Shown in pieces: positions 2,568-23,155 of a stretch of 24,000 nucleotides of DNA. Origin of the DNA: Anaerosoma tenue (lineage in GTDB: Bacteria > Actinomycetota > Coriobacteriia > Anaerosomatales > Anaerosomataceae). A program made the translations under genes and the position numbers. Position 1 is the stretch's first letter, and each line of letters starts with the position of its first letter. The notes beneath the pieces were generated by a model. That model had not been told where the DNA came from. It saw nothing but the letters and a program-made list of their open reading frames with translations, and made no database searches. The stretch is from assembly GCF_023161965.1 (NCBI RefSeq), contig NZ_JALNTY010000002.1, positions 188,552-212,551 on the forward strand, read 5' to 3'.

Positions 2568-3453
2568 CATGGCGGTCACAGCTGTGACCCCGCACGCTGA
2601 GACGCAGCTCGACCGGACGGAGCGCATCGGCGATACGGTCGTGCAGCACGGCCACCTGAGCGACCGCGTATACCTCCTCAAGACCGGGGAGAGCGCGGCG
2701 GGCGATGTGGCGCTGATGGAACGCCTGGCGGGTGAGCACGGATACTCCAAGCTGTTCGCCAAGGTGTCCGAGGACCGCGTGCAGCCCTTCCTGGTCGCCG
2801 GATTCCACGTTGAAGCGCGGGTACCCGGCGGTGCGGGAGAGCACGACCTCGTGTTCTGTTCGCGGTTCCTCTCGCGCGAGCGCGCGATCGAACGGTTCCC
2901 GGACGAGGTTGCACGAACGGCCGATGCGGCGGCACTAACGGGGGCGCTACCCCGGCCTGCGCCGGCTCCCGCCCTGCCGGCGGGTCTCCAGCGATCTTGC
3001 GTGGCCACACCGGCGGATGCGGAGGCGCTTGCCGCACTCTACGGAGACGTCTTCGCCAGCTACCCGTTCCCGATACACGACCCGCGGTTCGTGCGCGACT
3101 CGATGAGCGACGGGACCGTCTACCTGCTGATACGTGATGAGGTGTCCGACCAGATCGTCGCCGCTGCGTCGGCAGAACCCTCGGGCCATCCCCACACGTG
3201 CGAGATGACCGACTTCGCCACCGTGCCCGAGAGGCGTGGTCTCGGCCTGGCGAGCGTGCTGCTCCACGAGCTGGACGTCCACGCCGCGAACGCTGGCAAA
3301 CACGTGGCGTACACCATCGCTCGAGCAACGTCGGTGGGGATGAACAGGGTGTTCGCCCGCCAGGGCTACGCGCACGCGGGAACGCTCGTGAACAACACCA
3401 ACATCGCCGGTCGCATCGAGAGCATGCACGTCTGGTATCGGTCACTGGTCTAG
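2560..3453 (+). CDS. ablB: Beta-lysine N6-acetyltransferase (GNAT, AblB type)
   Basis: Frame of ORF 2419..3453. I place the start at ATG 2560, overlapping the ablA stop (ATGAGTGA, 8-nt overlap); ATG 2569 is an alternative. The N-terminal [21 protein letters not shown] resembles the AblB family signature. GNAT motif A is [14 protein letters not shown], followed by a C-terminal GNAT core. Confidence 0.82.
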
Positions 3454-3553: not shown

Positions 3554-5014
3554 CTACATCTCGACGTCGCTCATGGGGATGCCGAGCGCCGCAGCGACAC
3601 CCTCGCCGTAGGCGGGGTCGGCCTTGTAGCAGTTGCCGATGTGGCGCGTCTTGATCATCTTCGGCGCATCGCCCATGTTCCGCGCGGTGTTCTCAAAGAG
3701 ACGCTGCTGCTCATCGGCGGTCATGAGCCGGAAGAGCTTGCCCGGCTGCTCGTAGTAGTTGTCGTCGTCCTCGCGGAAGTCCCAGATGTCGGCCGCGCCT
3801 TCGATGGGAAGCGGCGGGTTCTTGTACTCCGGCTGTCCCTGCCATGCGTCGTAGCTGTTGGGCTCGTAGCCGGGCGTGGACCCGTAGTTGTCGTCAACAC
3901 GCATCTGGCCGTCGCGGCTGTAGCCGTGCACGGGGCAGCGGGCGGCGTTCACCGGGATGAGGTGGTGGTTCGTGCCGAGGCGATACCGCTGCGCGTCGCC
4001 GTAGCTGAAGAGACGACCCTGCAGCATCTTGTCGGGCGAGAAGCTGATGCCCGGCACCACGTTGGCGGGGTTGAACGCGGCCTGCTCCACATCCACGAAG
4101 TAGTTCTCCGGGTTGCGGTTGAGCTCCATCACGCCCACCTCGATCAGCGGGTAATCACCGTGGTACCACACCTTCGTGAGGTCGAACGGGTTGTACGGCA
4201 TCTTGGCCGCGTCCGCCTCGGGCATGACCTGGATCTTGAGCGTCCAGCGCGGATACTCGCCGCGATCGATCGCCTCGAGCAGATCGCGCTGGTGGCTCTC
4301 ACGGTCGCTTGCCACGATATCGGCGGCCTCGGCATCGGTGAGGTACTCGATCCCCTGCTCACATACCCAGTGGAACTTCACCCACACGCGCTCGTCCTGC
4401 GCGTTGATCATGGAGAAGGTGTGGCTGCCATATCCGTTCATGTGCCGGTAGCTCTTAGGGATGCCGCGGTCGCTCATCGTGATGGTGACCTGGTGGAGCG
4501 CCTCCGGCAGCAGCGTCCAGAAGTCCCAGTTGTTCTGCGCCGAGCGGAGGTTGGAGCGCGGGTCGCGCTTCACCGCGCGGTTGAGGTCGGGGAAGTTGTG
4601 CGGGTCCCGCAGGAAGAACACGGGCGTGTTGTTGCCCACGAGGTCCCAGTTGCCTTCCTCGGTGTAGAACTTCACCGCGAAGCCACGGATATCACGCTCA
4701 GCGTCGGCCGCGCCGCGCTCGCCGGCCACCGTCGAGAAGCGCACGAAGAGGTCGGTCTTCTTGCCGACTTCCGAGAAGACCTTGGCTTTCGTGTACTGCG
4801 TGATGTCGCCTGTGACTGTGAACGTGCCGAACGCGCCCGAGCCCTTTGCGTGCATCCGGCGCTCCGGGATGACCTCACGGTCGAAGTGCGCGAGCTTCTC
4901 CAGGTACCACACGTCCTGGAGAAGCATCGGCCCGCGCGGGCCGGCGGTCATCGCGTTCTGGTTGTCCGGGACCGGGATCCCAAAGTTCGTGGTGAGCTTC
5001 TTGTGCTCGCCCAT
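3554..5014 (-). CDS. katA: Monofunctional heme catalase (small-subunit type, 486 aa)
   Basis: Frame of ORF 3554..5233. Start moved to ATG (complement of 5012..5014), preceded by SD GGAGAGGAG 7 nt upstream. Sequence [63 protein letters not shown] contains the distal His motif, and [14 protein letters not shown] the proximal Tyr motif. Confidence 0.95.
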
Positions 5015-5078
5015 GTGCACACTCCTCTCCGGCGGCCGCTCGCACCACCGGGTCTCGTCCGACATCGTCCTATGGAAG

Positions 5079-5124
5079 GTTCCTGCCCAATGCGGCCCGG
5101 GCACAGCGGCCGCTCGGCAGGAAC
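5079..5124. promoter_or_regulatory. Interrupted 15-bp inverted repeat in the catalase / speE-like divergent intergenic region (candidate operator or RNA structure)
   Basis: GTTCCTGCC(5079..5087)-caat-GCGGCC-cgggcacagc-GGCCGC-tc-GGCAGGAAC(5116..5124). In addition, the 11-bp direct repeat GCGGCCGCTCG occurs at 5032..5042 and 5106..5116. Confidence 0.3.
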
Positions 5125-5192
5125 ACGCATCTGCAACGCAGAAGCCTGCATCTGGCACACTGTTCACAACCAACCCGCCGAAAGGGGCGCGT

Positions 5193-6752
5193 GTGCTCAG
5201 GTTCATCGTGTTCGGGTGCGGTGCGGCCCTCATGGGGCTCGAGATGGTGGCGGCCCGCGTGCTCGCCCCCTACCTCGGCAACTCCATCTATGTGTGGGGC
5301 GCGGTGATCTCGGTGGTGATGATCGCGCTCTCGATGGGCTACGCGCTGGGCGGTCAGCTGGCCGACCGCTTTGGCGCGGCGCGGTCGCTACCGCCCGTGA
5401 TCGCCGCAGCCGGGATCGCCACCGCAGCCGCCCCGCTGGTGGCCGAGGCGGTCCTGCCTTGGGCCGCGAACCTCGGTCCACGCCTCGGCTCGCTCGCAGC
5501 CGCCACCGCCATCTACTTCATCCCCTCGATCCTGCTCGCTATGGTCTCTCCGCTCGGTGTGCGCCTGGCCGCGCGCGAGGGCATGGCGCATCTGGGCAGG
5601 TCCACGGGCAACCTCTACGCCGTGTCCACCGGCGGCAGCATCGCGGGAACGCTCGCCACCTCGTTCTGGCTCATCCCCATGCTCTCGCTCGAGCCGCTCG
5701 TGACGTGGACCGGCATCAGTCTGCTGGCCATGGCGCTCCTGGCCCTCGCCCTGAAGCCTGAGACCATGGTGGGGACCATCTCGCCGCTCTCGGCACGCCT
5801 GGCCAAGGTCGTGGTACCCGGCACGCTGGTGCTGGCGGTCGCGGGCGTTGCGCTCTCGGGCATGGTGCTGCTGCGCTACTCGGAGATCCCCGAGATGAAC
5901 GAGCACGGCGAGACGGTCCTCTTCCAGGCCGACACGCAGTACCACCGGATCACGGTGACCGAGGGCGACGGGGCGCGGCACCTGCGCTTCGACCGCTCGC
6001 ACCAAAGCGCGATCTCGCTCGAAGACCCGTTCGAGAGCCGCATCCGGTATCCCGACTACATGCACCTTGCGCTCGCGCTGCACCCCGAGCCGGAACGCGT
6101 GCTGGTGCTCGGCCTGGGCGGCGGGGCGATCACCAAGCGCTACTGGCGCGACTACCCCGGCGTGATGGTGGACTCGGTGGAGATCGACCCGGTGGTGGTG
6201 GACGTGGCGCGGGACTACTTCTCGCTGCCCGAGGACGAACGCACCCGCGTGTTCACCCAGGACGCGCGCCGGTTCGTGCAGGAGAGTGACGACGTCTACG
6301 ACATCGTGATCGTGGACGCGTACTACTCCGACTCGCTGCCGTTCCACCTCACCACCGACGAGTTCCTGCGCGAGGTAAAAGCGGTGATGGCGCCGGACGG
6401 CGTGCTCGCGTACAACGTGATATCGGCGCCGGAGGGCGAGAAGAGCGACCTGTTCCGCAGCATGTACCGGACGGCCCGGGGGGTGTGGGGCGACCTGTGG
6501 GTGTTCCCCATCGGCCTGGGCGAGGACGGCAACACCCTCGCGCTCCGCAACATCATCGTGCTTGCCACCGACGCGCCGGTTACCGAGCAGGAGCTGCGCA
6601 CGGCCATCTCCTCACGCGTGGACGGCAGGGTCACCATCAACGGGTTCGCCGAGATGGGCAACGACCTCTACACCGCGCCGGTCGCCGTGAGCGACGTGCC
6701 GTTGCTCACCGACGCCCACGCACCCACCGACTCGCTCATCAAGGTGCAGTGA
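5193..6752 (+). CDS. Fused polytopic membrane domain / spermidine-synthase-like aminopropyltransferase (519 aa)
   Basis: Frame of ORF 4761..6752. Start placed at GTG 5193, 5 nt after SD GAAAGGGG (5180..5187); the upstream extension is antisense to catalase. The N-terminal ~200 aa are hydrophobic helices ([21 protein letters not shown]..., [17 protein letters not shown]...). The C-terminal class I SAM fold has [28 protein letters not shown] and YDIVIVDAY. Confidence 0.85.
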
Positions 6753-7678: not shown

Positions 7679-7707
7679 TTGATCCTTGTCATGAGGATCG
7701 GCTACAC
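7679..7707 (+). promoter_or_regulatory. Candidate sigma-70-type promoter of the methyltransferase gene with an embedded GATC-containing inverted repeat
   Basis: TTGATC (7679..7684), 17 nt, TACACT (7702..7707). The inverted repeat GATCCT(7681..7686)-N7-AGGATC(7694..7699) spans the -35 and spacer. Confidence 0.35.
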
Positions 7708-7744
7708 TCTGAACATACGTTCGATACCGACGGGAAGCGTGTCA

Positions 7745-9055
7745 ATGTCATCTGAACCGCAGTTCAGGGTAGCCGAGTTGTTCGCGGGCGTCGGTGGCTT
7801 CCGCCTCGGCCTGGAGAAGTCGGGGTGGGAAGTCGTCTGGAGCAACCAGTGGGAGCCATCGACGAAGACGCAGCATGCGTCTGACTGCTATGCGAGGCAC
7901 TTCGGTGATGAGGGCCATGTGTGCGACGACATCGCCGAGGTGGTCAAGGGCTCCCAGAACAGCGAAATACCGAACATCGAGCTGCTCGTTGGCGGCTTCC
8001 CTTGTCAGGACTACTCCGTGGCGAAGCCCCTCTCCATGGCCACGGGCATCCAGGGCAAGAAGGGCGTCCTCTGGTGGTCCATTTACGACATGCTCGAGTT
8101 GAAGAGGCCCCCGTTCGTCTTGCTCGAGAACGTGGATCGCCTGCTGAAATCGCCGGCCACCCAGCGCGGACGCGACTTCGCGATCATCCTCTCGTGCCTG
8201 GCGCAACTTGGATACGTTGCAGAATGGCGTGTCGTGAACGCAGCCGACTACGGGTTCCCTCAGCGTCGCCGTCGCGTCTTCTTGTACGCCCACAAGCTCG
8301 ACTACTGCGGATTCCAGTGGCACCCGATCCGCCGCCTCTACAGGGACGGCGTCATGGCCAAGGCTCTTCCGGTCAAGGCGCCAAGCGGCAAACGGCTCGA
8401 GACCTTATCCGCTCCCGAAGCCGACATCCAGCTGGATGCGAACCCGTATGTGGTGAGCGAGACGTTCGGCACTGGCCTCCGTGTCTCACCCTTCGAGAAC
8501 GCCGGTGTGATGATCGAGGGAAGCGTGTGGACCGAGCGGGTGGAACCCAGCTACCGGGGTAAGCGTCACACCCTCGGCCAGGTCGTGGCCAAGACCGATC
8601 ATGTTCCCGAGAGCTTCTACATCGCGCCTGAACGGGTCGAGACATGGGAGTACCTGAAGGGTCCCAAGCGCGAACCCCGTACAGACAAGGTCACCGGACA
8701 TCAGTACTACTACTCCGAAGGTGGGATGTCGTTCCCCGACTCGCTGGACCTACCCTCACGCACGATCCTCACAGGCGAAGGTGGCACTTCAGCCTCCCGC
8801 TTCAAGCATGTGATCCTCGACCCGAAGAACGGGCGGCTACGGAGACTGGTCCCTGAGGAGCTCGAGGAGCTGAACGGCTTCCCGAGGGGTTGGACCGATA
8901 CGGGCATGAGCGACGGGAAGCGTGCATTCATGATGGGGAACGCTCTCGTGGTAGGTGTCGTTGAGCGCATCGGCAAACGGATCATGGATGAGGCCAAGGA
9001 GTGCCTGGACGAGAAGGCGAAGCAGCGTGCCAAGCAAGTTGGGACCGATACCTGA
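7745..9055 (+). CDS. dcm: DNA (cytosine-5)-methyltransferase, M.Sau3AI-like (436 aa)
   Basis: Frame of ORF 7679..9055. Start at ATG 7745, with GGGAAG 7 nt upstream. C5-MTase motifs: I FAGVGGF, IV GGFPCQDYS, VI LLENVDRLL, VIII QRRRRVFLY, X MGNALVVGV. A long variable target-recognition region lies between motifs VIII and IX. Confidence 0.93.
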   Translation: MSSEPQFRVAELFAGVGGFRLGLEKSGWEVVWSNQWEPSTKTQHASDCYARHFGDEGHVCDDIAEVVKGSQNSEIPNIELLVGGFPCQDYSVAKPLSMATGIQGKKGVLWWSIYDMLELKRPPFVLLENVDRLLKSPATQRGRDFAIILSCLAQLGYVAEWRVVNAADYGFPQRRRRVFLYAHKLDYCGFQWHPIRRLYRDGVMAKALPVKAPSGKRLETLSAPEADIQLDANPYVVSETFGTGLRVSPFENAGVMIEGSVWTERVEPSYRGKRHTLGQVVAKTDHVPESFYIAPERVETWEYLKGPKREPRTDKVTGHQYYYSEGGMSFPDSLDLPSRTILTGEGGTSASRFKHVILDPKNGRLRRLVPEELEELNGFPRGWTDTGMSDGKRAFMMGNALVVGVVERIGKRIMDEAKECLDEKAKQRAKQVGTDT

Positions 9056-9083
9056 GCCGACTTCAGCAGCTGTCACGAGGTCG

Positions 9084-9461
9084 ATGAAGGGGAATCGCGG
9101 GCGTGATACCAGGCCCGAGGTAGAGCTTCGGCGCCTACTGCGCGAGGCGGGATTCCCCGGCTACCGGCTCCACTGGAAGAAGGCTCCCGGCCACCCGGAC
9201 ATCGCCTACCCTGGCCGCAAGGTCGCGATCTTCGTGAACGGCTGCTTCTGGCACCGTTGTCCACACTGCAAGCCGCCACTTCCGAAGTCACACGTCGATT
9301 ACTGGCAGAAGAAGTTCGACCTGAACGTGGAACGGGACGCCCGCAAGACAGCGGAGCTGGAGGGTGCGGGATGGACGGTGGTCACGGTATGGGAGTGCCA
9401 GCTGCAGCAGGAGCCGCGCTCGGTCATAGCACGACTCTCAAGGATCCTGGACCCCTCTTAG
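9084..9461 (+). CDS. vsr: Very-short-patch repair endonuclease (Vsr)
   Basis: Frame of ORF 8955..9461. Sequence: MKGNRGRDTRPEVELRRLLREAGFPGYRLHWKKAPGHPDIAYPGRKVAIFVNGCFWHRCPHC...GWTVVTVWEC. The start is uncertain. In-frame TTG 9039 (17-nt overlap with dcm) would add ...AAVTRS, and the RS preceding M matches the usual Vsr N-terminal RSxxM pattern. Confidence 0.88.
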   Translation: MKGNRGRDTRPEVELRRLLREAGFPGYRLHWKKAPGHPDIAYPGRKVAIFVNGCFWHRCPHCKPPLPKSHVDYWQKKFDLNVERDARKTAELEGAGWTVVTVWECQLQQEPRSVIARLSRILDPS

Positions 9462-10822
9462 GAGTCTCTGTTCGTGACGAGCTGCCGCGCCATGTAGCGC
9501 TGGTTCAACCAGAAGGAACGACGCACCGCACGCCCTCCAGAAGGCGTTGGGAGGGTATCCTGGGCGTTCCTGCCGTGGGGCCGTACATGACACATCTCCT
9601 CGTCTGCTGATCTCGGAAGATAGTCCAACTTGTCCTCTCGGATGAGGTCCACGGTGGCCTCGAAGCACTCCCGGGCATGTGTGTCGACGTCTCTAATGGG
9701 CGGCGTCCAGAACTGGGTTCTCAGCAGGCGGGGTACACCATCCGCGCCCAACTGATAGATGACGAAGAAGAACCTTCGTGTGAGATTCTCTCGGAGATCC
9801 GAGTCCTCCCAGTTCTGACCGATCAGGTCGAGGTAGCTGAACGCCTTGAAGGACACGGCCTCCTTTGGCACGCTATCAGGTCTCAGCCGTATCGTCCGCA
9901 CGATGATGTCGGCCTTCTCGAACTCAGCGATCTTCCTGTCGGGCTCAACGCCGAGGATGCGTTTGGTCAGAAGATGGTAGAAGGCCTTCGCGCTACGGTT
10001 CACTCGTACATCCAACTGCTCCGCAATCTCAGGCGCCGTCATGCCGATGAACGGTCTGAAGCGTTCATGGACCACGTCCTCGAGAGTACGCCCGGACCTG
10101 AGCTCATCGGTGGAGACCGCGGACTGCATCTCCAGACTCTCCTCGATGACCGAGTTCATGTAGCTCGCCTTGAAGGAGAATGCTCTAGGCTTGGCAGGCT
10201 CGGCGGAGTGAGGCTGACTACGTCGATCGCTGCCTTTCGAACCCTTCGTGCAGGCGGCGAGGTACATCGTGTCGCCCTCGGACAACTCATGTGCTCGACC
10301 GTCACGGATCTTCGCGACGATGGCCTCCCAGTCGTCACGGATGATCTCGAGGTCCTCCTCTGGGGGCGACCAGAGCCGCGCAATCTTGAACACGTAGTCG
10401 AGCGGTGCGCGGCCCTCTTCCCAAAGGTAGATCATGAGCAGGAGAAGGTCGTTCTTCGACTTGAAGGAGCTGCTCTCCCAGTTCTCGCCGCAGACCACAT
10501 CGTAATCGATCATCTGCAGCACGAGTCGTTCCTTCGCCCGAAGCCTCTTGCCGACACGCTTCACCGGCGTCGTCTTCAGCTCGACACCGGCTTCGGTGAA
10601 GTCAGGCTCTGAGATGTTACCTGGGTTGATTCCGAAGTATCCACGCTCGACCAGGTCTCCCAGTCCACCCTTGCCGGCACCCGACTGATACGTGATCTGC
10701 TGGTCACCTGGAAGAAGGTCCCTGAGGCAGTGCCCTACGAGGCGCTTCGCATATGCCTCGATCGAAGCAGGGTCCGACGGGTCGTAGTCCCGCTGGTGCG
10801 CGACCATTGCTCTCCTTCTCAT
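9458..10822 (-). CDS. Type II restriction endonuclease, Sau3AI / MutH family (454 aa; GATC specificity predicted by family)
   Basis: Frame of ORF 9458..11314. Start moved to ATG (complement of 10820..10822), with SD GAGGGGA 6 nt upstream. MutH-type catalytic region EPDFTEAGVELKTTP...KERLVLQMIDY. Strong collinear similarity to Sau3AI as I recall that sequence: DWEAIVAKIRDGRAHELSEGDTMYLAACTKGS, PRAFSFKASYMNSVI, MCHVRPHGRN, RRSFWLNQRYM. The upstream 164 codons of the track ORF are antisense to yegP. Confidence 0.9.
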   Translation of the reverse strand: MRRRAMVAHQRDYDPSDPASIEAYAKRLVGHCLRDLLPGDQQITYQSGAGKGGLGDLVERGYFGINPGNISEPDFTEAGVELKTTPVKRVGKRLRAKERLVLQMIDYDVVCGENWESSSFKSKNDLLLLMIYLWEEGRAPLDYVFKIARLWSPPEEDLEIIRDDWEAIVAKIRDGRAHELSEGDTMYLAACTKGSKGSDRRSQPHSAEPAKPRAFSFKASYMNSVIEESLEMQSAVSTDELRSGRTLEDVVHERFRPFIGMTAPEIAEQLDVRVNRSAKAFYHLLTKRILGVEPDRKIAEFEKADIIVRTIRLRPDSVPKEAVSFKAFSYLDLIGQNWEDSDLRENLTRRFFFVIYQLGADGVPRLLRTQFWTPPIRDVDTHARECFEATVDLIREDKLDYLPRSADEEMCHVRPHGRNAQDTLPTPSGGRAVRRSFWLNQRYMARQLVTNRDS

Positions 10823-10942
10823 CGTGGTCCCCTCAACGAACCACACGCGTCGAAGATGCGCAAATCGCAACTGACACAGGAGCCCGCCCCCCCCTCCCTT
10901 CGGGTACGTACCTGACATAGCCCTCTCCCGAAAGGAGCCGTC

Positions 10943-11284
10943 ATGCCAGGCAAGTTCGTCCTTGCGCTCGCCAAGAACGGCGAGTTCACCTTCAACCTCA
11001 AGGCAGGCAACAGCCAGACGATTCTCACCAGCGAGACCTACAAGGCGAAGAAGAGCGCACTCAACGGCATCGAGTCGGTGCGCACCAACGGCGTGATGGA
11101 CGAGCACTTCGAGCGCCGGGTCGCCAAGGACGGTCGTCCGTACTTCGTGCTCAAGGCCAGCAACGGCCAAGAGATCGGCCGCAGCCAGATGTACGCTTCG
11201 AGCGCTACCATGGAGAAGGGCATCGCCTCGGTGAAGAACAACGCGCAGAACGCCGTGGTGGAGGACACCACCGTAGAAGCGTAG
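10943..11284 (+). CDS. yegP: YegP / DUF1508 (UPF0339) tandem-domain protein (113 aa)
   Basis: Two repeats of the DUF1508 signature: FTFNLKAGNSQTILTSETYKAKKSALNGIESVRTNG and YFVLKASNGQEIGRSQMYASSATMEKGIASVKNN. SD AAAGGAG (10931..10937) lies 5 nt upstream. Confidence 0.9.
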   Translation: MPGKFVLALAKNGEFTFNLKAGNSQTILTSETYKAKKSALNGIESVRTNGVMDEHFERRVAKDGRPYFVLKASNGQEIGRSQMYASSATMEKGIASVKNNAQNAVVEDTTVEA

Positions 11285-11352: not shown

Positions 11353-12369
11353 GTGAGCCTACGCCTGCTTGAGTTCGTGGTCCGGCCAGACCGGGTCGAA
11401 GACATCACCGCGCTGCTCGAGGACAAGAACATCCACCATATGTGGGTGACCGAGTCGAACGACTCGTCCGCGGCCGTCAGGATCCTGCTCGATGCGGAGG
11501 CCGTCGAGGAGATCACGGATCTGCTGGCCGACCGCATGGGTCGCGATGAGGATCACCGCATGGTGCTGGTCGCCGTAGAGGCAACGGTACCGCGCATCGA
11601 AGAGCCGCCCGAGGAAGAGGCCGAAGAAGAGTCGGCCGAAGAGAAGGAGAAGCGCGCCCTCCGGATCAGCCGCGAGGAACTCTACGAAGACCTCAAGTCG
11701 GGCACCCGGCTCACCCCGTCGTACGCAGCGATGGTGGCGCTCTCCACGGTGGTGGCGGCTGTGGGCCTCGTGAGCGGTGATGTGGCGATAATCATCGGCG
11801 CCATGGTCATCGCCCCGCTCCTCGGTCCCACGATGGCGCTGGCGTTCGCCAACACGCTGGGCGACACCGCGCTCACCAAGGGTGCCTTGAAGACGATGGC
11901 GGTGGCGTTCGCCATCGCGGCGGCGATCTCGCTCGCGCTCGGCGTGATACTCGATGTGGACCCCGCAGCGCCGGAGATCGCCTCGCGCATCGGCGCCGGG
12001 TTCGGCAACATCGCGCTCGCGCTCGCGGCGGGCGCGGCAGGCTCGCTGGCGTTCACCACCGGCGTGCCCGCAGCGCTGGTAGGCGTGATGGTTGCGGTGG
12101 CGCTGCTCCCGCCGCTCACCGCCGCGGGTCTCCTGGCGGGTGACGGCCATCTCCAGCAGTCGCTCGGCGCACTCTTGCTCCTGGTGACCAACGTCGCCTC
12201 GATCAGCATCGCGGCGATGGCCACGTTCGCGATACAGCGCGTGCGGCCCCGTACCTGGTGGGAGGCCGAGCAGGCCACCAAGGCGCGCAGGACCGCGATC
12301 ATCGCCTGGGCGATCACGCTGGCGATCCTCGCCGCGATCATCGCGTTCGGGCAGGTTTCGGCGGTCTAG
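11353..12369 (+). CDS. DUF389 / TIGR00341-family membrane protein (338 aa)
   Basis: GTG start, with GAGAGGA at 11341..11347. Soluble N-terminal ~70 aa, Glu-rich linker EEPPEEEAEEESAEEKEK, then a hydrophobic domain with DVAIIIGAMVIAPLLGPTMALAFA and VMVAVALLPPLTAAG, typical of DUF389. Confidence 0.85.
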   Translation: MSLRLLEFVVRPDRVEDITALLEDKNIHHMWVTESNDSSAAVRILLDAEAVEEITDLLADRMGRDEDHRMVLVAVEATVPRIEEPPEEEAEEESAEEKEKRALRISREELYEDLKSGTRLTPSYAAMVALSTVVAAVGLVSGDVAIIIGAMVIAPLLGPTMALAFANTLGDTALTKGALKTMAVAFAIAAAISLALGVILDVDPAAPEIASRIGAGFGNIALALAAGAAGSLAFTTGVPAALVGVMVAVALLPPLTAAGLLAGDGHLQQSLGALLLLVTNVASISIAAMATFAIQRVRPRTWWEAEQATKARRTAIIAWAITLAILAAIIAFGQVSAV

Positions 12370-12387
12370 CGGCGGAGGGGTGCGGCC

Positions 12388-12843
12388 GTGACTTCTGCGC
12401 AGCGGAACGGGGACCTGCGAGCCTGGCTTGCACGGCTCGCCGTGGGCGCGGTCTTCGCCGTGAACGTACAGAGCGCGGTGGTGTTCCTCGCGTATCCCGG
12501 GCGCTACGCTCCCGGATTCGAACTCGCGGGAGTGGCGGGCGAGGCGGCCGTGCGAGGCCTTGGCGTCGCCTTCCTGATGTGGAACGCCACCTATCCCCTT
12601 GTGATCTGGCGTCCGCGGAGGCACCGCACGCTCTTTGGCGTCGTGCTCGCACAGCAGGCGATCGGCCTCCTCGGCGAATCGTGGATCCGGGCGACGCTGC
12701 CATCGGGACACGCCACGCTCGCCGCCGGGATCGAGCGATTCATCCTCTTTGATGCCATCGGACTTCTTGTGATGCTCGCCACATTCATCGCCCTCGGCGG
12801 TGATTCAAGCCAGGCGGATGGGGATACCATCAAGGAAAGCTAA
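12388..12843 (+). CDS. Hypothetical 4-TM membrane protein (151 aa); I recognise no family
   Basis: GTG start 7 nt after SD GGAGGGG (12374..12380), 18 nt after the DUF389 stop. Four hydrophobic segments: LARLAVGAVFAVNVQSAVVFLAY, AAVRGLGVAFLMWNATYPLVIW, TLFGVVLAQQAIGLLGESWI, FILFDAIGLLVMLATFIALGG. Coding status rests on SD, spacing and operon context only. Confidence 0.7.
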   Translation: MTSAQRNGDLRAWLARLAVGAVFAVNVQSAVVFLAYPGRYAPGFELAGVAGEAAVRGLGVAFLMWNATYPLVIWRPRRHRTLFGVVLAQQAIGLLGESWIRATLPSGHATLAAGIERFILFDAIGLLVMLATFIALGGDSSQADGDTIKES

Positions 12844-12865
12844 GCCTGCGACGGAAGGGGTGCAC

Positions 12866-13624
12866 GTGGACAGTGATTCCCGCTTCAAAAGGCTTCGGAT
12901 CTACAACATCGTGATGGGGTTGTTCCACCTGGGTCAGGGCGCGGCCATCATGGCGCTTGCCGAGCCGTACGCCATCCAGGTGACGGCATCGTGGTTGAGC
13001 GTGCGCCCGGGTCCCGGCGTGTACAGCCCGCCGCAGGAGTACTTCCAGTTCGACCTCGGTATGGGGGTGGCGCTCTTCCTGTTCTTCTCGGCGCTGGCGC
13101 ACTTCGTGATCGCCGGTCCGGCGTACGCCAAGTACGTCGAAGGCCTGAAGAACAACCACAACTACTACCGCTGGATCGAGTACGCGTTCAGCTCGTCGCT
13201 GATGGTCATCCTCATCGCATCGCTGGTGGGCATCACCGACATCGCGGCGCTCACCGCGATCTTCGGCGTGAACGCGTCGATGATCCTTTTCGGCTGGCTG
13301 ATGGAGAAGTACGAGCAGCCCGGCAAGCCCGACTGGACGGCGTTCATCTTCGGCTGCATCGCGGGAATCTTCCCGTGGATCGCTATCGCCGACTACCTGT
13401 GGGGCCCCGGCGCAAGCGACATGACCCCCACGTTCGTGTACTGGATCTTCGTGTCGATGTTCGTGTTCTTCAACAGCTTCGCGGTGAACCAGGTGTTGCA
13501 GTACAAGCAGGTGGCCAAGTGGAAGGACTACCTCTTCGGCGAGGCCACGTACGTGTTCCTGAGCCTCACCGCCAAGTCGCTCCTGGCCTGGCTCGTGTTC
13601 GCTAACGTGCTCATCCCGCAGTAG
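12866..13624 (+). CDS. Heliorhodopsin (252 aa)
   Basis: Frame of ORF 12800..13624. Start placed at GTG 12866, 5 nt after GGAAGGGG (12853..12860); GTG 12860 is possible. Full-length collinear match to the heliorhodopsin family: GLFHLGQ, ALAHFVI, YRWIEYAFSSSLMVILIA (counterion Glu, codon 13178..13180), FGVNASMILFGWLMEKY, FGCIAGIFPWI, FFNSFAVNQVLQYK, LSLTAKSLLAW (retinal Lys, codon 13574..13576). Confidence 0.93.
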   Translation: MDSDSRFKRLRIYNIVMGLFHLGQGAAIMALAEPYAIQVTASWLSVRPGPGVYSPPQEYFQFDLGMGVALFLFFSALAHFVIAGPAYAKYVEGLKNNHNYYRWIEYAFSSSLMVILIASLVGITDIAALTAIFGVNASMILFGWLMEKYEQPGKPDWTAFIFGCIAGIFPWIAIADYLWGPGASDMTPTFVYWIFVSMFVFFNSFAVNQVLQYKQVAKWKDYLFGEATYVFLSLTAKSLLAWLVFANVLIPQ

Positions 13625-13646
13625 AGGGACCCGATCCGTTCGCAAC

Positions 13647-13675
13647 AGGGCGTCGCGCGCCACGCGCGGCGCCCT
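13647..13675 (+). terminator. Strong GC hairpin terminating the DUF389 / 4-TM / heliorhodopsin cluster
   Basis: AGGGCGTCGCGCG-cca-CGCGCGGCGCCCT: 13-bp stem with one G-U pair and a 3-nt loop, 22 nt after the stop. No U-tract. Confidence 0.6.
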
Positions 13676-13741
13676 TGCGCGTGCCGCGAAGTGGCCGCGC
13701 CCTGGCTTCGCCACACGCCCCGCTCGTCGTACCATGGACGC

Positions 13742-14779
13742 ATGCCAGCACCCGCGCCCGACATCCGCACACTCCTCCCGCCACGCTCGGTGGTGCTCGG
13801 CCCGATGGCCGGGGTGACCGAGGCGCCGTTCCGCGGCATCTGCAAGCGCATGGGCGCCACCCTCACTTACACCGAGATGATCAGCGCCAAGGGGCTGCAC
13901 TACAACCCCGACTCCCGCGTCTCCCGTGAGCTGCTCACGTTCGATCCCGCCGAGGCGCCCTGCGGCGTGCAGCTCTTCGGCTCGGATCCCGCGATCATGG
14001 CCGACCGGGCCGCCTGGGTGTGCGCCGAGTACGGCGACGACGTGGCGCTCATCGACATCAACATGGGCTGTCCGGTCACCAAGGTGGTGAGCAACGGCGA
14101 GGGCAGCGCCCTGATGCGCACGCCGGAGCTGGCGGCCGAGATCGTGTCCCGCGTGGCTGCGGCTGTGCCGGTGCCGGTGACCGCCAAGTTCCGCGCCGGC
14201 TGGGATGCCGACGAGATCAACGCCGTGGAGTTCGCCAAGACGATGGAAGCCGCCGGCGCAGCGGCGCTGTGCGTGCACGGGCGCACACGCAAGCAGTTCT
14301 ACCAGGGCGCTGCCGACTGGGACGTGATCGCGGCCGTGAAGACCGCTGTGGACGTTCCCGTGATCGGCAGCGGCGACGTGTTCTCCGCCACGGATGCGGC
14401 GGCGATGCTGGAGCGCACCGGGGTGGACGCCGTGATGGTGGCGCGCGGCGCGCAGGGCGACCCGTGGATCTTCCGCGAGGCCCGCGCGCTCCTGGACCGC
14501 GGCGAGACCCTCCCACCGCCCACGCCGCTGGAGCGCGTGGAAATGGCGCGAGAACACGCCCGGGCGCTCGTGGCGTTCGCCGGCGAGCATGCCGTGACAC
14601 GCATGCGCAAGCACATCGGCTGGTACATCGTGGGCATGCCAGGCGCGCGCCACGTTCGCGAGCGTGTGAACCACGTGACCACCTCGGCAGAGCTGGATTC
14701 GCTCCTCGGGGAATATGAGGGGTATCTTCAGCACACCGGCAGCACTGACGATGCGGACACCTCACATGACGAAGCGTAA
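13742..14779 (+). CDS. dusB: tRNA-dihydrouridine synthase (DusB-like, 345 aa)
   Basis: Frame of ORF 13691..14779. Start at ATG 13742; the GTG at 13691 lies immediately after the terminator and is unlikely. Motifs: VLGPMAGVTEAPFRGI, DINMGCPVTKVV (catalytic Cys), AKFRAGW, LCVHGRTRKQ. There is no SD. A TACCAT at 13728..13733 could mean a leaderless mRNA. Confidence 0.9.
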   Translation: MPAPAPDIRTLLPPRSVVLGPMAGVTEAPFRGICKRMGATLTYTEMISAKGLHYNPDSRVSRELLTFDPAEAPCGVQLFGSDPAIMADRAAWVCAEYGDDVALIDINMGCPVTKVVSNGEGSALMRTPELAAEIVSRVAAAVPVPVTAKFRAGWDADEINAVEFAKTMEAAGAAALCVHGRTRKQFYQGAADWDVIAAVKTAVDVPVIGSGDVFSATDAAAMLERTGVDAVMVARGAQGDPWIFREARALLDRGETLPPPTPLERVEMAREHARALVAFAGEHAVTRMRKHIGWYIVGMPGARHVRERVNHVTTSAELDSLLGEYEGYLQHTGSTDDADTSHDEA

Positions 14780-17402: not shown

Positions 17403-18689
17403 TCAGATGTCGCTCTTCTTCATGCCGAGGGCGGCCGCCATCGCCTCGGCAGTCGCCTCCACTTGCGGCGCCGTGAGGTGGCGCGTCTCGATCACCACGT
17501 GCTTGGCGTCGAAGTCGCCCCAGTCGTCCGTGAGGATCGTGAGGCCGAGTTCGGCGGCACGATCGTAGAAGTCGGTGCCGGGGAACGGGCACGTGTAGGA
17601 GAGGTAGATGCGCGCGCCGAGCTCGTGCACCTCGGCCATGAACTCCAGGCTCTCCCGGAGCGTCTCGGGCGTGTCGTCCGGGAACGGGATCATGAAGGAG
17701 CAGACGGCGTCGATGCCGCACGCCACCGCAGCGGCGACCGCATCACGCACCTGCTGCTTCTCGATGCCCTTCACCGAGTCGAGCACGGTCTGCGAACCCG
17801 ACTCCACGCCGAACTGGATGCCGGTGCAGCCGGCCTCGGCCATCTGCCGGATGAGATCGGCGTCCACGAGGTCCACGCGTGTGGCGCAGCCCCACTCCAC
17901 CGGGTGCTCGAGCGCGCCAAGCGCCTCCAGCAGCTCGCCGATCCAGCGGCGGTTGAGCGTGAAGATGTCGTCGGTGAAGAAGACCTCGTCCACCCCGTGC
18001 TCGCGCCACAGATCGGCGATCTCGGCGGCGATGCTCTCCGGCGAACGCATGCGGCGACGCCCCTGCCAGAGCGAGGAGGCCGAGCAGAACGGACAACGGT
18101 ACGGGCAGCTCCCCGTAGCGGTGAGCACGTTCCACTTGTCGTGGTAGAAGTCCGTGGGGAACAGCCACCGCGCCGGGCGCGGCAGGTCATCGGGATGGCC
18201 GAGCTCGGCGCGCGGGTTCACGTGCGGCGCGTCGTCCTCGATGAAGCCGAGGCCCGGAACGTCGGCCAGGCTGCCCTCACCGCGGACCACGTTGCGCGCG
18301 AGCGCCACCATCGCGTCCTCGCCCGGGCCGGCCACGATGAAGTCCACCGCGTCCCGCTCGGCAAGGACCTCCTCGGGCAGGATGGTGGGATGCGCGCCGC
18401 CGATCACCACCACTGTCTCCGGCGAGCGCTCCTTGATGTGCCGCGCGATCTCGAGCGCCTGCGGGTATGTCTCGGTCATGGCCGAGATGCCCACGATGCG
18501 GGGACGATCGTTGGCCAGGATGCTGTTCACCCTCACCAGGTTCAGCCCGCTCACGTTGAAGTCGACCGCGCTCACGGAGAAGCCGTCCTCCATGAGCGCA
18601 GACGCGATGTAGGCGAGACCCAACGGAGGGCTCAGCCGTGCGTGCTCGTTCCTCTTGCGAACGGGCGCGTTGACCAGCGTCACGTCCAT
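17403..18689 (-). CDS. B12-binding-domain radical SAM enzyme (428 aa), substrate unknown
   Basis: Full ORF. N-terminal cobalamin-binding-type domain (PPLGLAYIASAL...IVGISAMT...VVVIGGAHPT) and radical SAM motif GSCPYRCPFCSAS. GGCGGGA lies ~4 nt upstream of ATG (complement of 18687..18689). Confidence 0.9.
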   Translation of the reverse strand: MDVTLVNAPVRKRNEHARLSPPLGLAYIASALMEDGFSVSAVDFNVSGLNLVRVNSILANDRPRIVGISAMTETYPQALEIARHIKERSPETVVVIGGAHPTILPEEVLAERDAVDFIVAGPGEDAMVALARNVVRGEGSLADVPGLGFIEDDAPHVNPRAELGHPDDLPRPARWLFPTDFYHDKWNVLTATGSCPYRCPFCSASSLWQGRRRMRSPESIAAEIADLWREHGVDEVFFTDDIFTLNRRWIGELLEALGALEHPVEWGCATRVDLVDADLIRQMAEAGCTGIQFGVESGSQTVLDSVKGIEKQQVRDAVAAAVACGIDAVCSFMIPFPDDTPETLRESLEFMAEVHELGARIYLSYTCPFPGTDFYDRAAELGLTILTDDWGDFDAKHVVIETRHLTAPQVEATAEAMAAALGMKKSDI

Positions 18690-18725
18690 CAGGTCCCGCC
18701 TACATCCATGCGCCTTGTGAGCGCG

Positions 18726-19166
18726 TTACTCTTCGGTCTCGGATACGGCCTCTTCGGCCCCCGCGTCCGGGTCCTTGTACGGTGCCACCTGGATCGAACG
18801 GGTCATCAGTATCTCGCGTACCCTTGGGGCCACGATACCGAACGGTTCTCCCGCGCGCATCTCCTCGGCGATGGCGTCCGCCAACTCCTCGTCCTCCAGG
18901 ACCTCCCGGACCCACGTCTGGAGCGCGCCCAGATCGATGTAGCCGATCGTCTCCTGGTTGTTGGGCCGGATCGCCTCCTCATACGTACCGATCTTGAGGA
19001 AGCTTGCCACCTGGGCCAGCGAGTAGAGCGCCACGGGGTTCGAACCGCCCATCACCGACATCTTGAGTCCGGTGATGCGCTCGTCCTGTCCGACCTCGCG
19101 GAGCAAGCGCTCCGCGAGCTCAGGCGACGGCTGTGTCAACTCACGTGCCACGGTGCGTTCCTCCAT
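18726..19166 (-). CDS. Hypothetical acidic protein (146 aa), translationally coupled to the AOR gene
   Basis: Frame of ORF 18726..19169. The minus strand reads ...TCGTGATGGAG: AOR stop TGA (19168..19166) overlaps ATG (19166..19164), and a GTG start at 19169 is also possible. Product MEERTVARELTQPSPELAERLL...DPDAGAEEAVSETEE. I recognise no family. Confidence 0.65.
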   Translation of the reverse strand: MEERTVARELTQPSPELAERLLREVGQDERITGLKMSVMGGSNPVALYSLAQVASFLKIGTYEEAIRPNNQETIGYIDLGALQTWVREVLEDEELADAIAEEMRAGEPFGIVAPRVREILMTRSIQVAPYKDPDAGAEEAVSETEE

Positions 19167-21241
19167 CACGAGCCGAGCTTGCCGGCGGCCTCGAGGTCAT
19201 CGGCCACGTGCGAAAGACCGAGCTCCTCGAGCGTGGCGCGGGTCGGCCAACCGGTGGCCGGGTCCCAACCTTCGAGGGTGTAGAACTTGGTCTTCCACTC
19301 CTCGACCTTGTCGCGGTCGAGCATGCGGCCCACGGCGCTCTCGTACACCCACTGGCCGTCCTTGTACATCGGCACCACGTACGGGACCTCGTAGGTGGTG
19401 TAGCCGGGCACAGCGCCGACCTCGTAGTTGTAGTCGGTGAAGACCTCGAGCTCGCGATCGCGGCCCTGGAGGATCCAGATGGCCCGGTCGAGGTTCCAGA
19501 TCTTGCGGCCGACCTCCATGCCCTCCTCGAACGACTGGTCGATGCCGGTGACGGCCTTGTAGAACTTGGGCTCGCCCTCGCCGGTCATGCCGCGGCCCTC
19601 GGGGCCGTACTCGTTGAAGAAGTCGCCCCACGCCCAGTCGCACAGTGCCAGTGACTGCTTGTAGTAGCGGGTGTAATGGCGGTGCCACGCCACCAGCTTG
19701 GCCATCGACTCCGAGTAGATGCCCTCGTCGCTGTAGTCCATCATCATCGGATCATTGTACGGGCTGAGCTTCTCGCCCATGATCTCCGCAAGCTGGTCTG
19801 CCGAGCAGGCCGGCTGTGCGCCGAACAGCGCCGAGATCGACGGCGCCCAGAACACGAGCGTGTTGAAGTCGTGCTCGTTGATATCACGGTCGCCCACGAG
19901 CGAGCCGTAGCCCCACTCCACCTCGGTACGGGCGTCGTAGTGCTGCACGTAGCCGTGGCACTGGAGCGGCAGGATGCCGCTCGCGGTATCCTGCTCGTAG
20001 CGTCCCCACTTCTCCGCGGCGTACGCGACGCCTTCGTGGAGCGCCTCGCCCACGTCGTAGCCGTTGGCCATCATGTCGAGGAACTGCTTGGCGAATTCGG
20101 CGGTGCCGAGCTGGTTGAAGTCGAGCGCGGTGTCGATCTCCAGACCCGGGCCGAGGATGCCCTCCTTGTGGAGGTTGTTCAGCCAGATGATCGCGCCCTC
20201 GGCCTGATAGGAGTTGATGCCGTAGCGCTGCAGCGCCTCGGTGGCGTCCAGGATGTGCTGGGTGTAGCTGCCGTGGGCCGCCTGGTCGTACACGTGGTAG
20301 AAGAAGTAGTCCACGCACGACGAGCCGTTGCTCGCGGCGCTTGCGAAGCGTGCGCGGCAGTTCTTGTGGCAGCCGAGACACCCGATCGGGGACTTCGGCT
20401 GGTCGGCAGGACCATAGCCCGCGGCGCCAGAGGCCGGGGCGCCACCGAACATCGACCCCATGCCCAGCGGCGTGTAGTCCTCGTCGAGGTGGCCCGCCAC
20501 CGCATACTCCATCGACCACAGACGTGCATCCATGAGCGCCTTGGGGTCGGCGATCTCAACGGAACCGGTGCCGAGCACGCTGATGGCCTTCAGGTTCTTG
20601 GCGCCGAACACGCCACCGAAGCCACCCTGGCCCGCGCCGTTGCCCGCGTCGTGGATGAGCGCCGCGGTCCGGCTGAGGGTCTCGCCCGCCTTGCCGATAG
20701 TGAGAACGGCCGGCCGCTGCGTGGTGCGCTCCTTGCCCAGCTCGCGCCACTCCTTTTCTTCACCGTTCTGCACGATGCGCCAGATCTCTTCCTGCGCCTC
20801 CACCGCGTCGAGGCCCCAGAGGCCCTCAGCGCTCTTGAACTCCACCTCGCCGTTGCGGATGTCGATCCACACCGGCTCGTCCGCTGCGCCTTCCACGGTG
20901 AAGCCGTCCCAGCCCGCCCACTTCATGTGACCGCAGAACCGGCCGCCGAAGTTCGAGCGGGTGAAGTACTCGATCGGGTAGCCCTGCACGCCGATTCCCT
21001 GGACCTCGGTACGCCCCGAAGCCGCCGGGACCAGAGTGCCGGAGAACGGCGACGCCATGATCGTCACGACGTTCTTGGGATCGAAGCCGGAGACGGTCTT
21101 GTCTTCGCACAGGTCCCAGAAGACCGCTGAACCCATGCCGTGCCCGCCGCCGTACTCCTGGTACTTCTCGCTATCGAGGGTCGAGACCGACTTGTTCGTC
21201 AGGTCGATCCTCAGGATCTTCCCGGTATATCCACCAGCCAT
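19166..21241 (-). CDS. Aldehyde:ferredoxin oxidoreductase (AOR) family tungsto/molybdopterin enzyme, long YdhV-like form (691 aa)
   Basis: Full ORF, with SD AGGAGG 8 nt upstream. AOR N-terminal domain: MAGGYTGKILRIDLTNKSV..., GGRFCGHMKWAGWDGFTVEGAADEPVWI, GGFGGVFGAKNLKAISVLG. [4Fe-4S] motif CLGCHKNC (CxxCxxxC). C-terminal FYTLEGWDPATGWPTRATLEELGL. No N-terminal signal peptide. Confidence 0.93.
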   Translation of the reverse strand: MAGGYTGKILRIDLTNKSVSTLDSEKYQEYGGGHGMGSAVFWDLCEDKTVSGFDPKNVVTIMASPFSGTLVPAASGRTEVQGIGVQGYPIEYFTRSNFGGRFCGHMKWAGWDGFTVEGAADEPVWIDIRNGEVEFKSAEGLWGLDAVEAQEEIWRIVQNGEEKEWRELGKERTTQRPAVLTIGKAGETLSRTAALIHDAGNGAGQGGFGGVFGAKNLKAISVLGTGSVEIADPKALMDARLWSMEYAVAGHLDEDYTPLGMGSMFGGAPASGAAGYGPADQPKSPIGCLGCHKNCRARFASAASNGSSCVDYFFYHVYDQAAHGSYTQHILDATEALQRYGINSYQAEGAIIWLNNLHKEGILGPGLEIDTALDFNQLGTAEFAKQFLDMMANGYDVGEALHEGVAYAAEKWGRYEQDTASGILPLQCHGYVQHYDARTEVEWGYGSLVGDRDINEHDFNTLVFWAPSISALFGAQPACSADQLAEIMGEKLSPYNDPMMMDYSDEGIYSESMAKLVAWHRHYTRYYKQSLALCDWAWGDFFNEYGPEGRGMTGEGEPKFYKAVTGIDQSFEEGMEVGRKIWNLDRAIWILQGRDRELEVFTDYNYEVGAVPGYTTYEVPYVVPMYKDGQWVYESAVGRMLDRDKVEEWKTKFYTLEGWDPATGWPTRATLEELGLSHVADDLEAAGKLGS

Positions 21242-21292
21242 GTGGCATTCCTCCTGGTCTGTTGGTCGTCAGGTGACTCGTACGTGGTCCTG

Positions 21293-22054
21293 CTAGTGGC
21301 CGGTCGGTGCCGGGGCCGCCGTCGCCACGGGCGCGTATGACCCGTCGTCTTCGGTCGGCAGGCCGAGAAGGGCCCATGCCACGTTGTCGTCGCGCAGGTT
21401 CACCTGGTAACCCGTATCGGTCTGCGCGGGGATGTCGCTCACAAAGCTGATCGCGCGGGTGGGGCACACGGCCACGCACGCCTGCTGGCCGCCGACGCCG
21501 CCCTCTTCGGTCATGTACGGGGTGTCCTTGCACAGGTCGCACTTCTGCGCCTTGCGCTTCTTGGGATCCCACTGGACGCGCGACGGAGTGAACGGGCACG
21601 CCTCGATGCAGCGCTCGCAGCCGATGCACTTGGCCTGATCCACCGTGCGCACGTTGCCGTTGTCGGGATCTGCGTGCATCGCGCCCGTGGGGCACGCCTC
21701 GGCGCAGTACGGGTGCGGGCACTGCCTGCACTGCTCCTGGACGACGCTGTCCTCTTCACCATACGCAGCGAAGACGTTGTTGATGACCTGGATGCGCGAG
21801 AGCGAGAGGCTCGTCTCACCGGAGTGCACGAGCGAGCAGGCGAGCATGCAGCTCGCGCAGCCGGCGCACTTGTGGGTGTCGACGACGAGGTAGCCCTCGG
21901 AAGCCGGGACCGCGAACACGCTGTCCGGCAGGAAGAAGCTCTTGACCATGAAGCCGCCCGCGAGAGCCCCGATACCTACACCGCCTGCTCCTATGAGGAA
22001 CTGCCGGCGTGAGTAGCCCTGGCCCTCGGTCGTCTTGATATCGTTGTCCGCCAT
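21293..22054 (-). CDS. Tat-signal 4x[4Fe-4S] ferredoxin-like electron-transfer subunit (DmsB/HybA/YdhX type, 253 aa)
   Basis: Frame of ORF 21293..22087. Start at ATG (complement of 22052..22054), with SD GAAAGGA 9 nt upstream. Twin-arginine motif SRRQFLIGAGGVGIGALAGG. Four Cys clusters: CAGCASCMLAC, CRQCPHPYCAEAC, CIGCERCIEAC, CDLC...CVAVC. Confidence 0.9.
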   Translation of the reverse strand: MADNDIKTTEGQGYSRRQFLIGAGGVGIGALAGGFMVKSFFLPDSVFAVPASEGYLVVDTHKCAGCASCMLACSLVHSGETSLSLSRIQVINNVFAAYGEEDSVVQEQCRQCPHPYCAEACPTGAMHADPDNGNVRTVDQAKCIGCERCIEACPFTPSRVQWDPKKRKAQKCDLCKDTPYMTEEGGVGGQQACVAVCPTRAISFVSDIPAQTDTGYQVNLRDDNVAWALLGLPTEDDGSYAPVATAAPAPTGH

Positions 22055-22089
22055 GTGGAGATGTCCTTTCAGATATCGTCCGCGCACCC

Positions 22090-22938
22090 TTACTCGGGCG
22101 CGTCTCCGGTCTTCGTGAGGCGCTTGTACCAGCCGGCGTGCTCCTTCTTGGCCTGCTCCACCGACACGTAGCCGGTGAACATGCTCTTGAGCACCGGCCA
22201 GCTCATCGGCAGGATCGCCGCGAAGAAGACGTGGGCGAGGAAGAAGGCGAGCATCGCGATGGTGGAGACGTCATGCACCAGCGTCGTGGCGCCCATGAGG
22301 CCCGCCGGCATGTCGACCACGTGCGCGAGGGCCTTCAGAAGCCCGGTCACGATGATCAGCACCGTGGAGGCCAGGGCGAGGATGTAGGCCATCTTCTCGC
22401 TCTCGAAGTACTTGTCCTCGGGCGGCATGGTGCAGCTCTTCACGCCCAGGAGGTGTCCGTAGTGGTTCTTCGTGTACTCCCAGAAGTCCTTGGTCGGCAG
22501 GTGCTCCTTGAAACGGTGCGCTGAAAGAAGTGTGTTCGCGCCGTAGTAGAAGGTGCCGAACAGGAACATCACCACGAAGACGAAGTGCAGGTTCATCATC
22601 GCCCAGGTCCACGTGCCGCTTGACACCAGACGCGGGACGAACAGGAACCCGAGCGCGATGCCGGTGACGAGCAGCATCATGGTGCCGATGCCGTGCGTCC
22701 AGTGCTCGAGGATCGCCGCGCCGTCGTGGCGCAGCACCTTGTCCCCTTCGATTCGCGGGTCCTCCCGACGGGTGAGCCCCGCCGCGAAGATGCCCACCAG
22801 CGGTGCTGCGAAGACCAGCCACCAGCCGGAGTCGAAGAGAAGCTCGGAGCCGTCGGTTGCCGCCACCTGCCAGGCGTAGACCGCTCCGACCGCGAACACC
22901 AGCGCCAGAATGACGCTTGTGAGCGCGCGTTTACTCAT
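22090..22938 (-). CDS. Membrane b-type cytochrome subunit (FdnI / Ni-Fe hydrogenase cytochrome b / YdhU-PhsC-like, 282 aa)
   Basis: Frame of ORF 22090..22974. Start moved to ATG (complement of 22936..22938), with SD GGAAGGGG 7 nt upstream. It has ~5 TM helices. Conserved-looking His residues: VLRHDGAAILEHWTHGIGTMMLLVTG, MNLHFVFVV, LVHDVSTIAMLAFFLAHVFF. Confidence 0.8.
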   Translation of the reverse strand: MSKRALTSVILALVFAVGAVYAWQVAATDGSELLFDSGWWLVFAAPLVGIFAAGLTRREDPRIEGDKVLRHDGAAILEHWTHGIGTMMLLVTGIALGFLFVPRLVSSGTWTWAMMNLHFVFVVMFLFGTFYYGANTLLSAHRFKEHLPTKDFWEYTKNHYGHLLGVKSCTMPPEDKYFESEKMAYILALASTVLIIVTGLLKALAHVVDMPAGLMGATTLVHDVSTIAMLAFFLAHVFFAAILPMSWPVLKSMFTGYVSVEQAKKEHAGWYKRLTKTGDAPE

Positions 22939-22974
22939 GCGCACACCCCTTCCCCTGATCTCGATTGCAGGCAT

Positions 22975-23060: not shown

Positions 23061-23155
23061 GCTACCACCTCTGAGCAGGGAATGTCGCCTTCGGTGGCGC
23101 GGTCACCGTGGGTCCCGGTGTCATCCCTGCGGCTGTACGGCGTCTCTCAGGCCGG

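Follow-up and report, generated by a model that had tools for sequence, protein, structure and literature searches.

A 24,000-nt stretch of the Anaerosoma tenue genome (contig NZ_JALNTY010000002.1, positions 188,552 to 212,551 of the forward strand; hereafter the window) contains a heliorhodopsin (HeR) gene as the last of three tightly spaced membrane-protein genes, preceded by a DUF389/TIGR00341 gene and by a gene for a four-helix membrane protein that we name TM4. Our analysis indicates, with a probability of about 0.75, that this is a genuine HeR in a variable slot of a conserved co-directional string of a Coriobacteriia-like clade, and that DUF389, TM4 and HeR stand together by a local accident of gene order, the string looking tight because HeR occupies a variable slot among conserved housekeeping genes. 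This neighbourhood does not reveal the partner of the HeR. Most HeR partners have yet to be identified, and candidates are commonly put forward on the strength of gene neighbourhood; a tidy-looking operon such as this one can mislead.

Comparison of the HeR with PF18761 gave 314.2 bits (cutoff 26.7, E 6.7e-94) over profile positions 1-242 of 242, and comparison with the HeR equivalog NF038020 gave 319.7 bits (cutoff 100). Alignment to the 48C12 structures 6su3 and 9ljj gave 250 bits and alignment to TaHeR (6is6) 206 bits, confirming the full-length HeR identity proposed in an initial annotation of the window made from the letters alone. Residues H21, H79, E105 and K237 align with H23, H80, E107 and K241 of 48C12 (6su3), which puts K237 of SLTAKSLLAW at the position of the retinal Schiff-base lysine (TM7) and E105 of YRWIEY at that of the single counterion glutamate (TM3), as that annotation had assigned them together with both histidines. 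Since all key residues are intact, a functional retinal photoreceptor is the best-supported reading of this sequence, and the protein adds a new member to a family already known. By family membership, it is expected to have an inverted topology with a cytoplasmic N-terminus, to bind retinal and to run a slow photocycle with no pumping; like characterised HeRs it would bind all-trans-retinal, and in light it would probably modulate a partner protein via its cytoplasmic face rather than pump ions. No carotenoid or retinal gene was found among the scanned open reading frames (ORFs) of the window, those at 78-887 and 23108-23794 (both +) being without any match. The earlier statement that the window holds no retinal-synthesis gene thus stands for the ORFs scanned and does not extend to four minus-strand ORFs outside the direct scan (18726-19169, 21293-22087, 22090-22974 and 23156-23998); the counterparts of 21293-22087 and 22090-22974 in two homologous loci, L053 and L054, are Fer4 and Ni_hydr_CYTB genes.

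The ORF listing reproduced the coordinates of DUF389, TM4 and HeR exactly as first annotated (Table 1), and the sequence confirmed the 18-nt gap between DUF389 and TM4 (12370-12387), the 22-nt gap between TM4 and HeR (12844-12865) and a purine-rich Shine-Dalgarno sequence (SD) before each gene (GAGAGGA, GGAGGGG and GGAAGGGG). A DUF1508 gene, not mentioned in the initial annotation although it is a constant partner of DUF389 in relatives, lies on the same strand 68 nt 5′ of the DUF389 start and probably heads the co-directional string. The DUF1508-DUF389 intergenic stretch contains no stable hairpin, and terminator scanning and folding detected neither an internal hairpin nor a strong terminator between the DUF1508, DUF389, TM4 and HeR genes. 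Folding did recover the GC hairpin reported at the end of the cluster, with 13 bp, one G.U pair and a 3-nt loop; it begins 22 nt past the HeR stop codon, and the 81-nt region folds at z = -2.9. Having no T-run after it, the hairpin escaped the canonical terminator scan. A sigma-70-type promoter scan gave no match. Co-transcription of DUF389, TM4 and HeR in this strain is plausible from the short gaps, the lack of an internal hairpin and the hairpin after HeR: HeR would be read through from a DUF1508/DUF389/TM4 transcript started at upstream promoters, and transcription would stop at the GC hairpin. Such co-transcription would be a by-product of gene position, that is, of insertion into a co-directional string, and not a sign of partnership. 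The HeR region also has a perfect 13-nt inverted repeat (CAGGGCGCGGCCA at 12935-12947 and TGGCCGCGCCCTG at 13692-13704, 744 nt apart), with one arm inside HeR, in its 5′ part, and the other just past the hairpin; on a rough estimate, ~0.03 such repeats are expected there by chance.

The initial annotation had read the three genes as a plausible light-responsive membrane module; on such a model their products would act together. The common strand, the short gaps, the individual SDs and the single hairpin after HeR all speak for this, as do the recurrence of the same trio in relatives (L051, L061 and L062, and L057 with an extra PF03458 gene) and the finding that L053-56 miss both HeR and most of DUF389. 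However, the neighbourhood proved not to be conserved in other HeR genomes, an outcome that the annotation itself had named as counting against the module. Across 44 HeR loci taken from GTDB species representatives, whose HeRs share 44-91% identity with that of the window, DUF389 was detected near none and TM4 near one (L014, UBA6100) by tblastn at E<=1 and by hidden Markov models (HMMs) from 120 homologues of each protein. Upstream sequence of at least 1.5 kb was available for 35 loci, and 34 of these 35 informative loci had no TM4 within 6 kb. The HMM search for DUF389 and TM4 near HeR homologues, a check proposed in the initial annotation itself, therefore gave no recurrence beyond shared local synteny, all positives having the same DUF1508...Dus-PPDK backbone. 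The trio loci cannot be counted as independent, since each either comes from the window's own species or has the window's backbone. Moreover, DUF389 orthologues occur without HeR in five of seven clade lineages and in outgroups, HeR and TM4 occur without DUF389 in L048, and HeR occurs without both in L001. We consider such a module highly improbable, and DUF389 as the HeR partner very unlikely. Neighbour genes in these comparisons were called with a crude GC3-based ORF caller, which mis-called the catalase region, and Pfam confirmation covered the recurrent clusters only.

Examination of the relatives revealed the recurring clade order spermine synthase, DUF1508, DUF389, slot, Dus (tRNA-dihydrouridine synthase) and PPDK, with Dus syntenic in L001, L014, L040, L051-56, L058-64 and L141/143. 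Upstream, a minus-strand catalase is present in the window and in relatives; in L051, L141 and L143 a minus-strand Fur gene sits beside it. Where DUF389 is kept, the slot was found to hold TM4-HeR (window, L051, L061), PF03458 ('Gly_transporter')-TM4-HeR (L057, rearranged downstream), PF03458-TM4 followed by Dus (L063/64), a 98-amino-acid (98-aa) ORF without TM4 (L058), an opposite-strand methyltransferase (L141-143) or nothing at all (L059/60). Where DUF389 is absent, it holds PF03458-TM4-TspO-HeR-UbiA (L048), and L001 has HeR with neither TM4 nor DUF389 in the same backbone; in L053-56, TM4 and the reverse-strand 98-aa ORF follow an N-terminal remnant of DUF389 only. One backbone thus presents DUF389 with TM4 and HeR, TM4 with HeR, HeR alone, DUF389 with TM4, DUF389 alone and TM4 alone, the only combination unseen being DUF389 and HeR without TM4. 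Since all other combinations were observed, DUF389, TM4 and HeR are gained and lost independently, and no correlated gain or loss of the three was found. Decayed remnants were present in two lineages, of HeR in one and of DUF389 in the other.

In blastn comparisons, the window matches L053-56 and L058 to either side of 12852-13723, the approximate HeR-specific segment, and not across it; in its place these loci carry ~480 bp with the 98-aa minus-strand ORF; the GC hairpin falls inside the segment missing from these HeR-less relatives. In L063 the conserved Dus leader starts 10 nt past the TM4 stop codon, with the Dus ATG ~33 nt downstream and no hairpin. The indel borders showed no target-site duplication or mobile-element signature, only short and probably chance repeats, so that a mobile-cassette mechanism for HeR is not supported. 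The 98-aa ORF (L053, 7191-7487; L058, 1685-1981; both minus strand) is hydrophobic, has no Pfam match and shows 87.5% DNA identity between the two lineages. Two modest gains come from the locus: HeR is present in some close relatives and absent in others, a well-defined polymorphism, and TM4 is a new conserved family of small membrane proteins.

The identity of DUF389 was verified against PF04087 (107.9 bits, cutoff 23.9, E 5.5e-31) and TIGR00341 (178.7 bits, cutoff 94.75), and the sequence displays the soluble N-terminal domain and Glu-rich linker (EEPPEEEAEEESAEEKEK) noted earlier, followed by a hydrophobic domain. The family has >5,900 homologues, some named as Coriobacteriia, Acidobacteriota, Vicinamibacterales and Longimicrobiales. 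DUF1508 precedes DUF389 in all seven clade lineages sampled, with gaps of 43-68 nt; the loci showing this order are L051, L057, L058, L059/60, L061, L063 and L141-143. HeR is near DUF389 in two of the seven (window type and L057), and no HeR is nearby in L058, L059/60, L063, L141/142 and L143. Two outgroup DUF389 loci (L144 and L146) have unrelated neighbours and no DUF1508 before DUF389, by which the DUF1508-DUF389 pairing was rejected as a general rule; it is a clade-level synteny of two genes of unknown function. Gene order in these lineages identifies DUF389 as a backbone gene tied to DUF1508 and not linked to HeR, and the DUF389/TM4/HeR string provides no ground for assigning DUF389 a light-related role.

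TM4 was annotated as an unknown 4-TM protein, a description that the present data bear out. It has no Pfam or NCBIfam match even at E<=10, an exact-sequence look-up of the window protein retrieved no record, and its AlphaFold2 model (mean predicted local distance difference test score 91.4) displays four long helices whose best match among PDB folds was no lower than E 0.39. Because Pfam searches with 33 family members at E<=1 gave no consistent family, kinship to DUF2177 and DUF2238, both published HeR neighbours, was rejected at the sequence level. The homologues, without Pfam or NCBIfam model, form at least 653 clusters with the motif GLGxAFLMWNATYP and with invariant polar residues in predicted helices, including N26, W65-N66, T68, Q89-Q90, E97, H108 and D122 (alignment A1). 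TM4 is a real, well-conserved, uncatalogued membrane family.

TM4 and HeR could also be a clade-specific functional pair, DUF389 being irrelevant and TM4 serving as transducer, chaperone or regulated target. The two genes are adjacent in the window type, in L057 and, with TspO in between, in L048/L069, three diverged lineages whose flanks differ; this favours a pair, as do the strong conservation of TM4 with its invariant intramembrane polar residues and the precedent of HeRs regulating membrane partners, e.g. the ABC transporter OmrDE (PMC11109279). All three cases, however, lie in one inherited backbone and may count as a single event, and TM4 occurs without HeR in L053-56, L063/64, L074 and more than 50 other loci. 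Of 80 metagenome loci of TM4, 56 were informative, with 1 kb or more downstream, and in three of these TM4 was followed by an intact HeR (L061 and L062, from the window's own species, and L069, with the order TM4-TspO-HeR); L074 retains a 99-bp HeR remnant after TM4. MazG (-) and/or VIT1, an iron-transporter gene, flank TM4 in ~27 loci, several labelled as human-gut metagenome, in the arrangement of the Gordonibacter (Eggerthellaceae) reference. TM4 is common in such gut Eggerthellaceae loci, with no HeR within 4 kb, and the loci linked neither to HeR nor to MazG/VIT1 have diverse neighbours. Nor is this HeR type bound to TM4, given that 34 of the 35 informative HeR loci lack it and that HeRs 81-91% identical to that of the window were found in quite different contexts: eight adjoin a divergent DUF1295 gene, and others lie with MarR (4 loci), Redoxin/AhpC-TSA (4), NmrA/DUF2867 (4), Fur plus the catalase-peroxidase KatG (3) or DUF5996 (3). 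In a neighbour-joining tree calculated without support values, HeRs linked to TM4 are scattered among others that are at least 81% identical and placed elsewhere. A functional pair is in our view unlikely, and TM4 is left as a weak, clade-restricted candidate because its three adjacency cases share one inherited locus and it mostly occurs without HeR.

UBA6100-type relatives (L048, 5425-7860; L069; L074) carry a TspO/MBR tetrapyrrole-binding membrane protein gene 5′ of HeR and a UbiA prenyltransferase gene 3′ of it; in L074 both TspO and HeR are remnants and UbiA is kept. No paper was found naming heliorhodopsin together with TspO. The slot (channel-like PF03458, TM4, TspO, HeR and UbiA) might be a facultative membrane island linking retinal light sensing with TspO-type tetrapyrrole sensing, with TM4 as a lineage-specific HeR partner, which we regard as quite improbable.

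The contexts of the closest relatives raise another explanation, in which HeR belongs to the kind of oxidative/light-stress response that Bulzu et al. 2021 (PMC8612252) proposed, and its partners are redox or peroxide genes rather than the genes immediately upstream. Consistent with this, the Redoxin/AhpC-TSA, Fur/catalase-peroxidase and MarR loci are among the closest HeR relatives, catalase and Fur belong to the same backbone in relatives, the window itself has a catalase ~6 kb upstream, and glutaredoxin, peroxidase and catalase are next to HeRs in PMC8612252. That catalase, however, is on the other strand with a restriction-modification (R-M) island between it and the string, it is part of the backbone even where HeR is missing (L141 and L143), and the association is qualitative, without a background rate. 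A stress-response role is therefore doubtful as an account of this locus, and we treat it as tentative.

Several points weigh against a local accident of gene order, the reading that we prefer. The HeR sample is skewed towards relatives with exact 8-mers in common with the query and derives from fragmented metagenome-assembled genomes, as do most loci in all comparisons, and the counts refer to adjacency in fetched loci, not to genome-wide co-occurrence elsewhere in the same genomes. TM4 adjoins HeR or sits one gene 5′ of it in three diverged lineages (TM4 ~64% identical) despite rearrangements on both sides, which could reflect selection and not inertia. Finally, the loss of most of DUF389 along with HeR in L053-56 is a single co-loss event, compatible with coupling.

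The remaining features of the window, which has a high GC content (~0.66) and contains no Rfam family and no tRNA, are included in Table 1 or described here. Dus has a possible alternative start at 13691, and a 345-aa gene call in L051 favours the start at 13742. The last 65 nt of Dus (14715-14779) are shared with an 894-aa ORF that has a PPDK_N domain, and L051 and L059 show the same overlap. Just 5′ of DUF1508, a lower-GC island (7679-10840, GC 0.60-0.62 vs ~0.66) forms a type II R-M unit that is present in L051 and L053-55 and absent from L059 and L141-143. A lysine-2,3-aminomutase gene (radical SAM plus LAM_C) followed by a GNAT acetyltransferase gene occupies 1257-3453, a pair that we take to resemble the ablA/ablB arrangement for synthesis of the osmolyte N-epsilon-acetyl-beta-lysine. 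Within 17403-22974 on the minus strand, Pfam confirmed window ORFs for a B12-binding radical-SAM enzyme and for an aldehyde:ferredoxin oxidoreductase (AFOR); these are followed, in the homologous loci, L053/L054, by genes for Fer4 and Ni_hydr_CYTB-type cytochrome b. Judged by gene content, the AFOR, radical-SAM, Fer4 and Ni_hydr_CYTB genes point to an anaerobic lifestyle of this HeR-bearing, catalase-carrying organism.

Table 1. Positions of the main features within the window
Feature	Position	Strand	Description
Catalase	3554-5233	-	
Dcm-type DNA methylase	7679-9055		R-M island
Vsr very-short-patch repair endonuclease	8955-9461		R-M island
MutH/Sau3AI-like endonuclease	9458 to ~10807	-	R-M island
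DUF1508 protein	10943-11284	+	113 aa, two DUF1508 repeats; PF07411, E 1.5e-39
DUF389/TIGR00341 membrane protein	11353-12369	+	338 aa; PF04087, TIGR00341
TM4, four-helix membrane protein	12388-12843	+	151 aa; uncatalogued family; name given here
HeR presence/absence segment	12852-13723	.	versus closest HeR-less relatives; blastn
Heliorhodopsin (HeR)	12866-13624	+	252 aa; PF18761, NF038020
GC-rich hairpin	13647-13675	+	13 bp, 3-nt loop; fold prediction
Dus (tRNA-dihydrouridine synthase)	13742-14779	+	PF01207, E 5.5e-89

Published HeR partners comprise glutamine synthetase (GS) for AbHeR (PMC9529153), photolyase for TfHeR (PMC9769723) and the ABC transporter OmrDE for OcHeR (PMC11109279). Published HeR operons resemble this one in that HeR comes downstream in a co-directional string with short gaps, the pattern used to nominate partners; the pairing in the window differs in that it does not recur outside one syntenic clade. 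Ten neighbour groups are given in PMC11109279 (GS, NAD+ synthetase, photolyase, MerR, TerC, ABC transporter, SDR, alpha/beta hydrolase, DUF2177 and DUF2238), and the window genes match none of them, DUF389 hitting PF04087 only and TM4 and 32 homologues hitting none of these classes; the supplements of that paper contain neither DUF389 nor TIGR00341. The window DUF389 protein scores above the curated cutoffs of a family that is widespread and uncharacterised, and the top-ranked literature matches for 'DUF389' concerned DUF3892/DUF3893 instead. No paper among those searched names heliorhodopsin with DUF389, which agrees with the initial annotation, in which no description of the association was known; the juxtaposition of DUF389, TM4 and HeR owes its absence from these papers to being lineage-specific rather than to a conserved system having been missed. 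Bulzu et al. 2021 (PMC8612252) listed glutaredoxin/COG4270, peroxidase, catalase and histidine kinases as HeR neighbours. The Redoxin, Fur-KatG and MarR contexts of close relatives of the window HeR resemble these, and a catalase is in the window, whereas the immediate neighbours of HeR here are not redox proteins. In contrast to 48C12 (PDB 6su3, 6su4 and 9ljj) and TaHeR (6is6), the window HeR comes from a high-GC Coriobacteriia-like lineage with anaerobe-type neighbours (AFOR and radical-SAM enzymes); it nevertheless aligns with both over its full length and matches all the key residues of 48C12.

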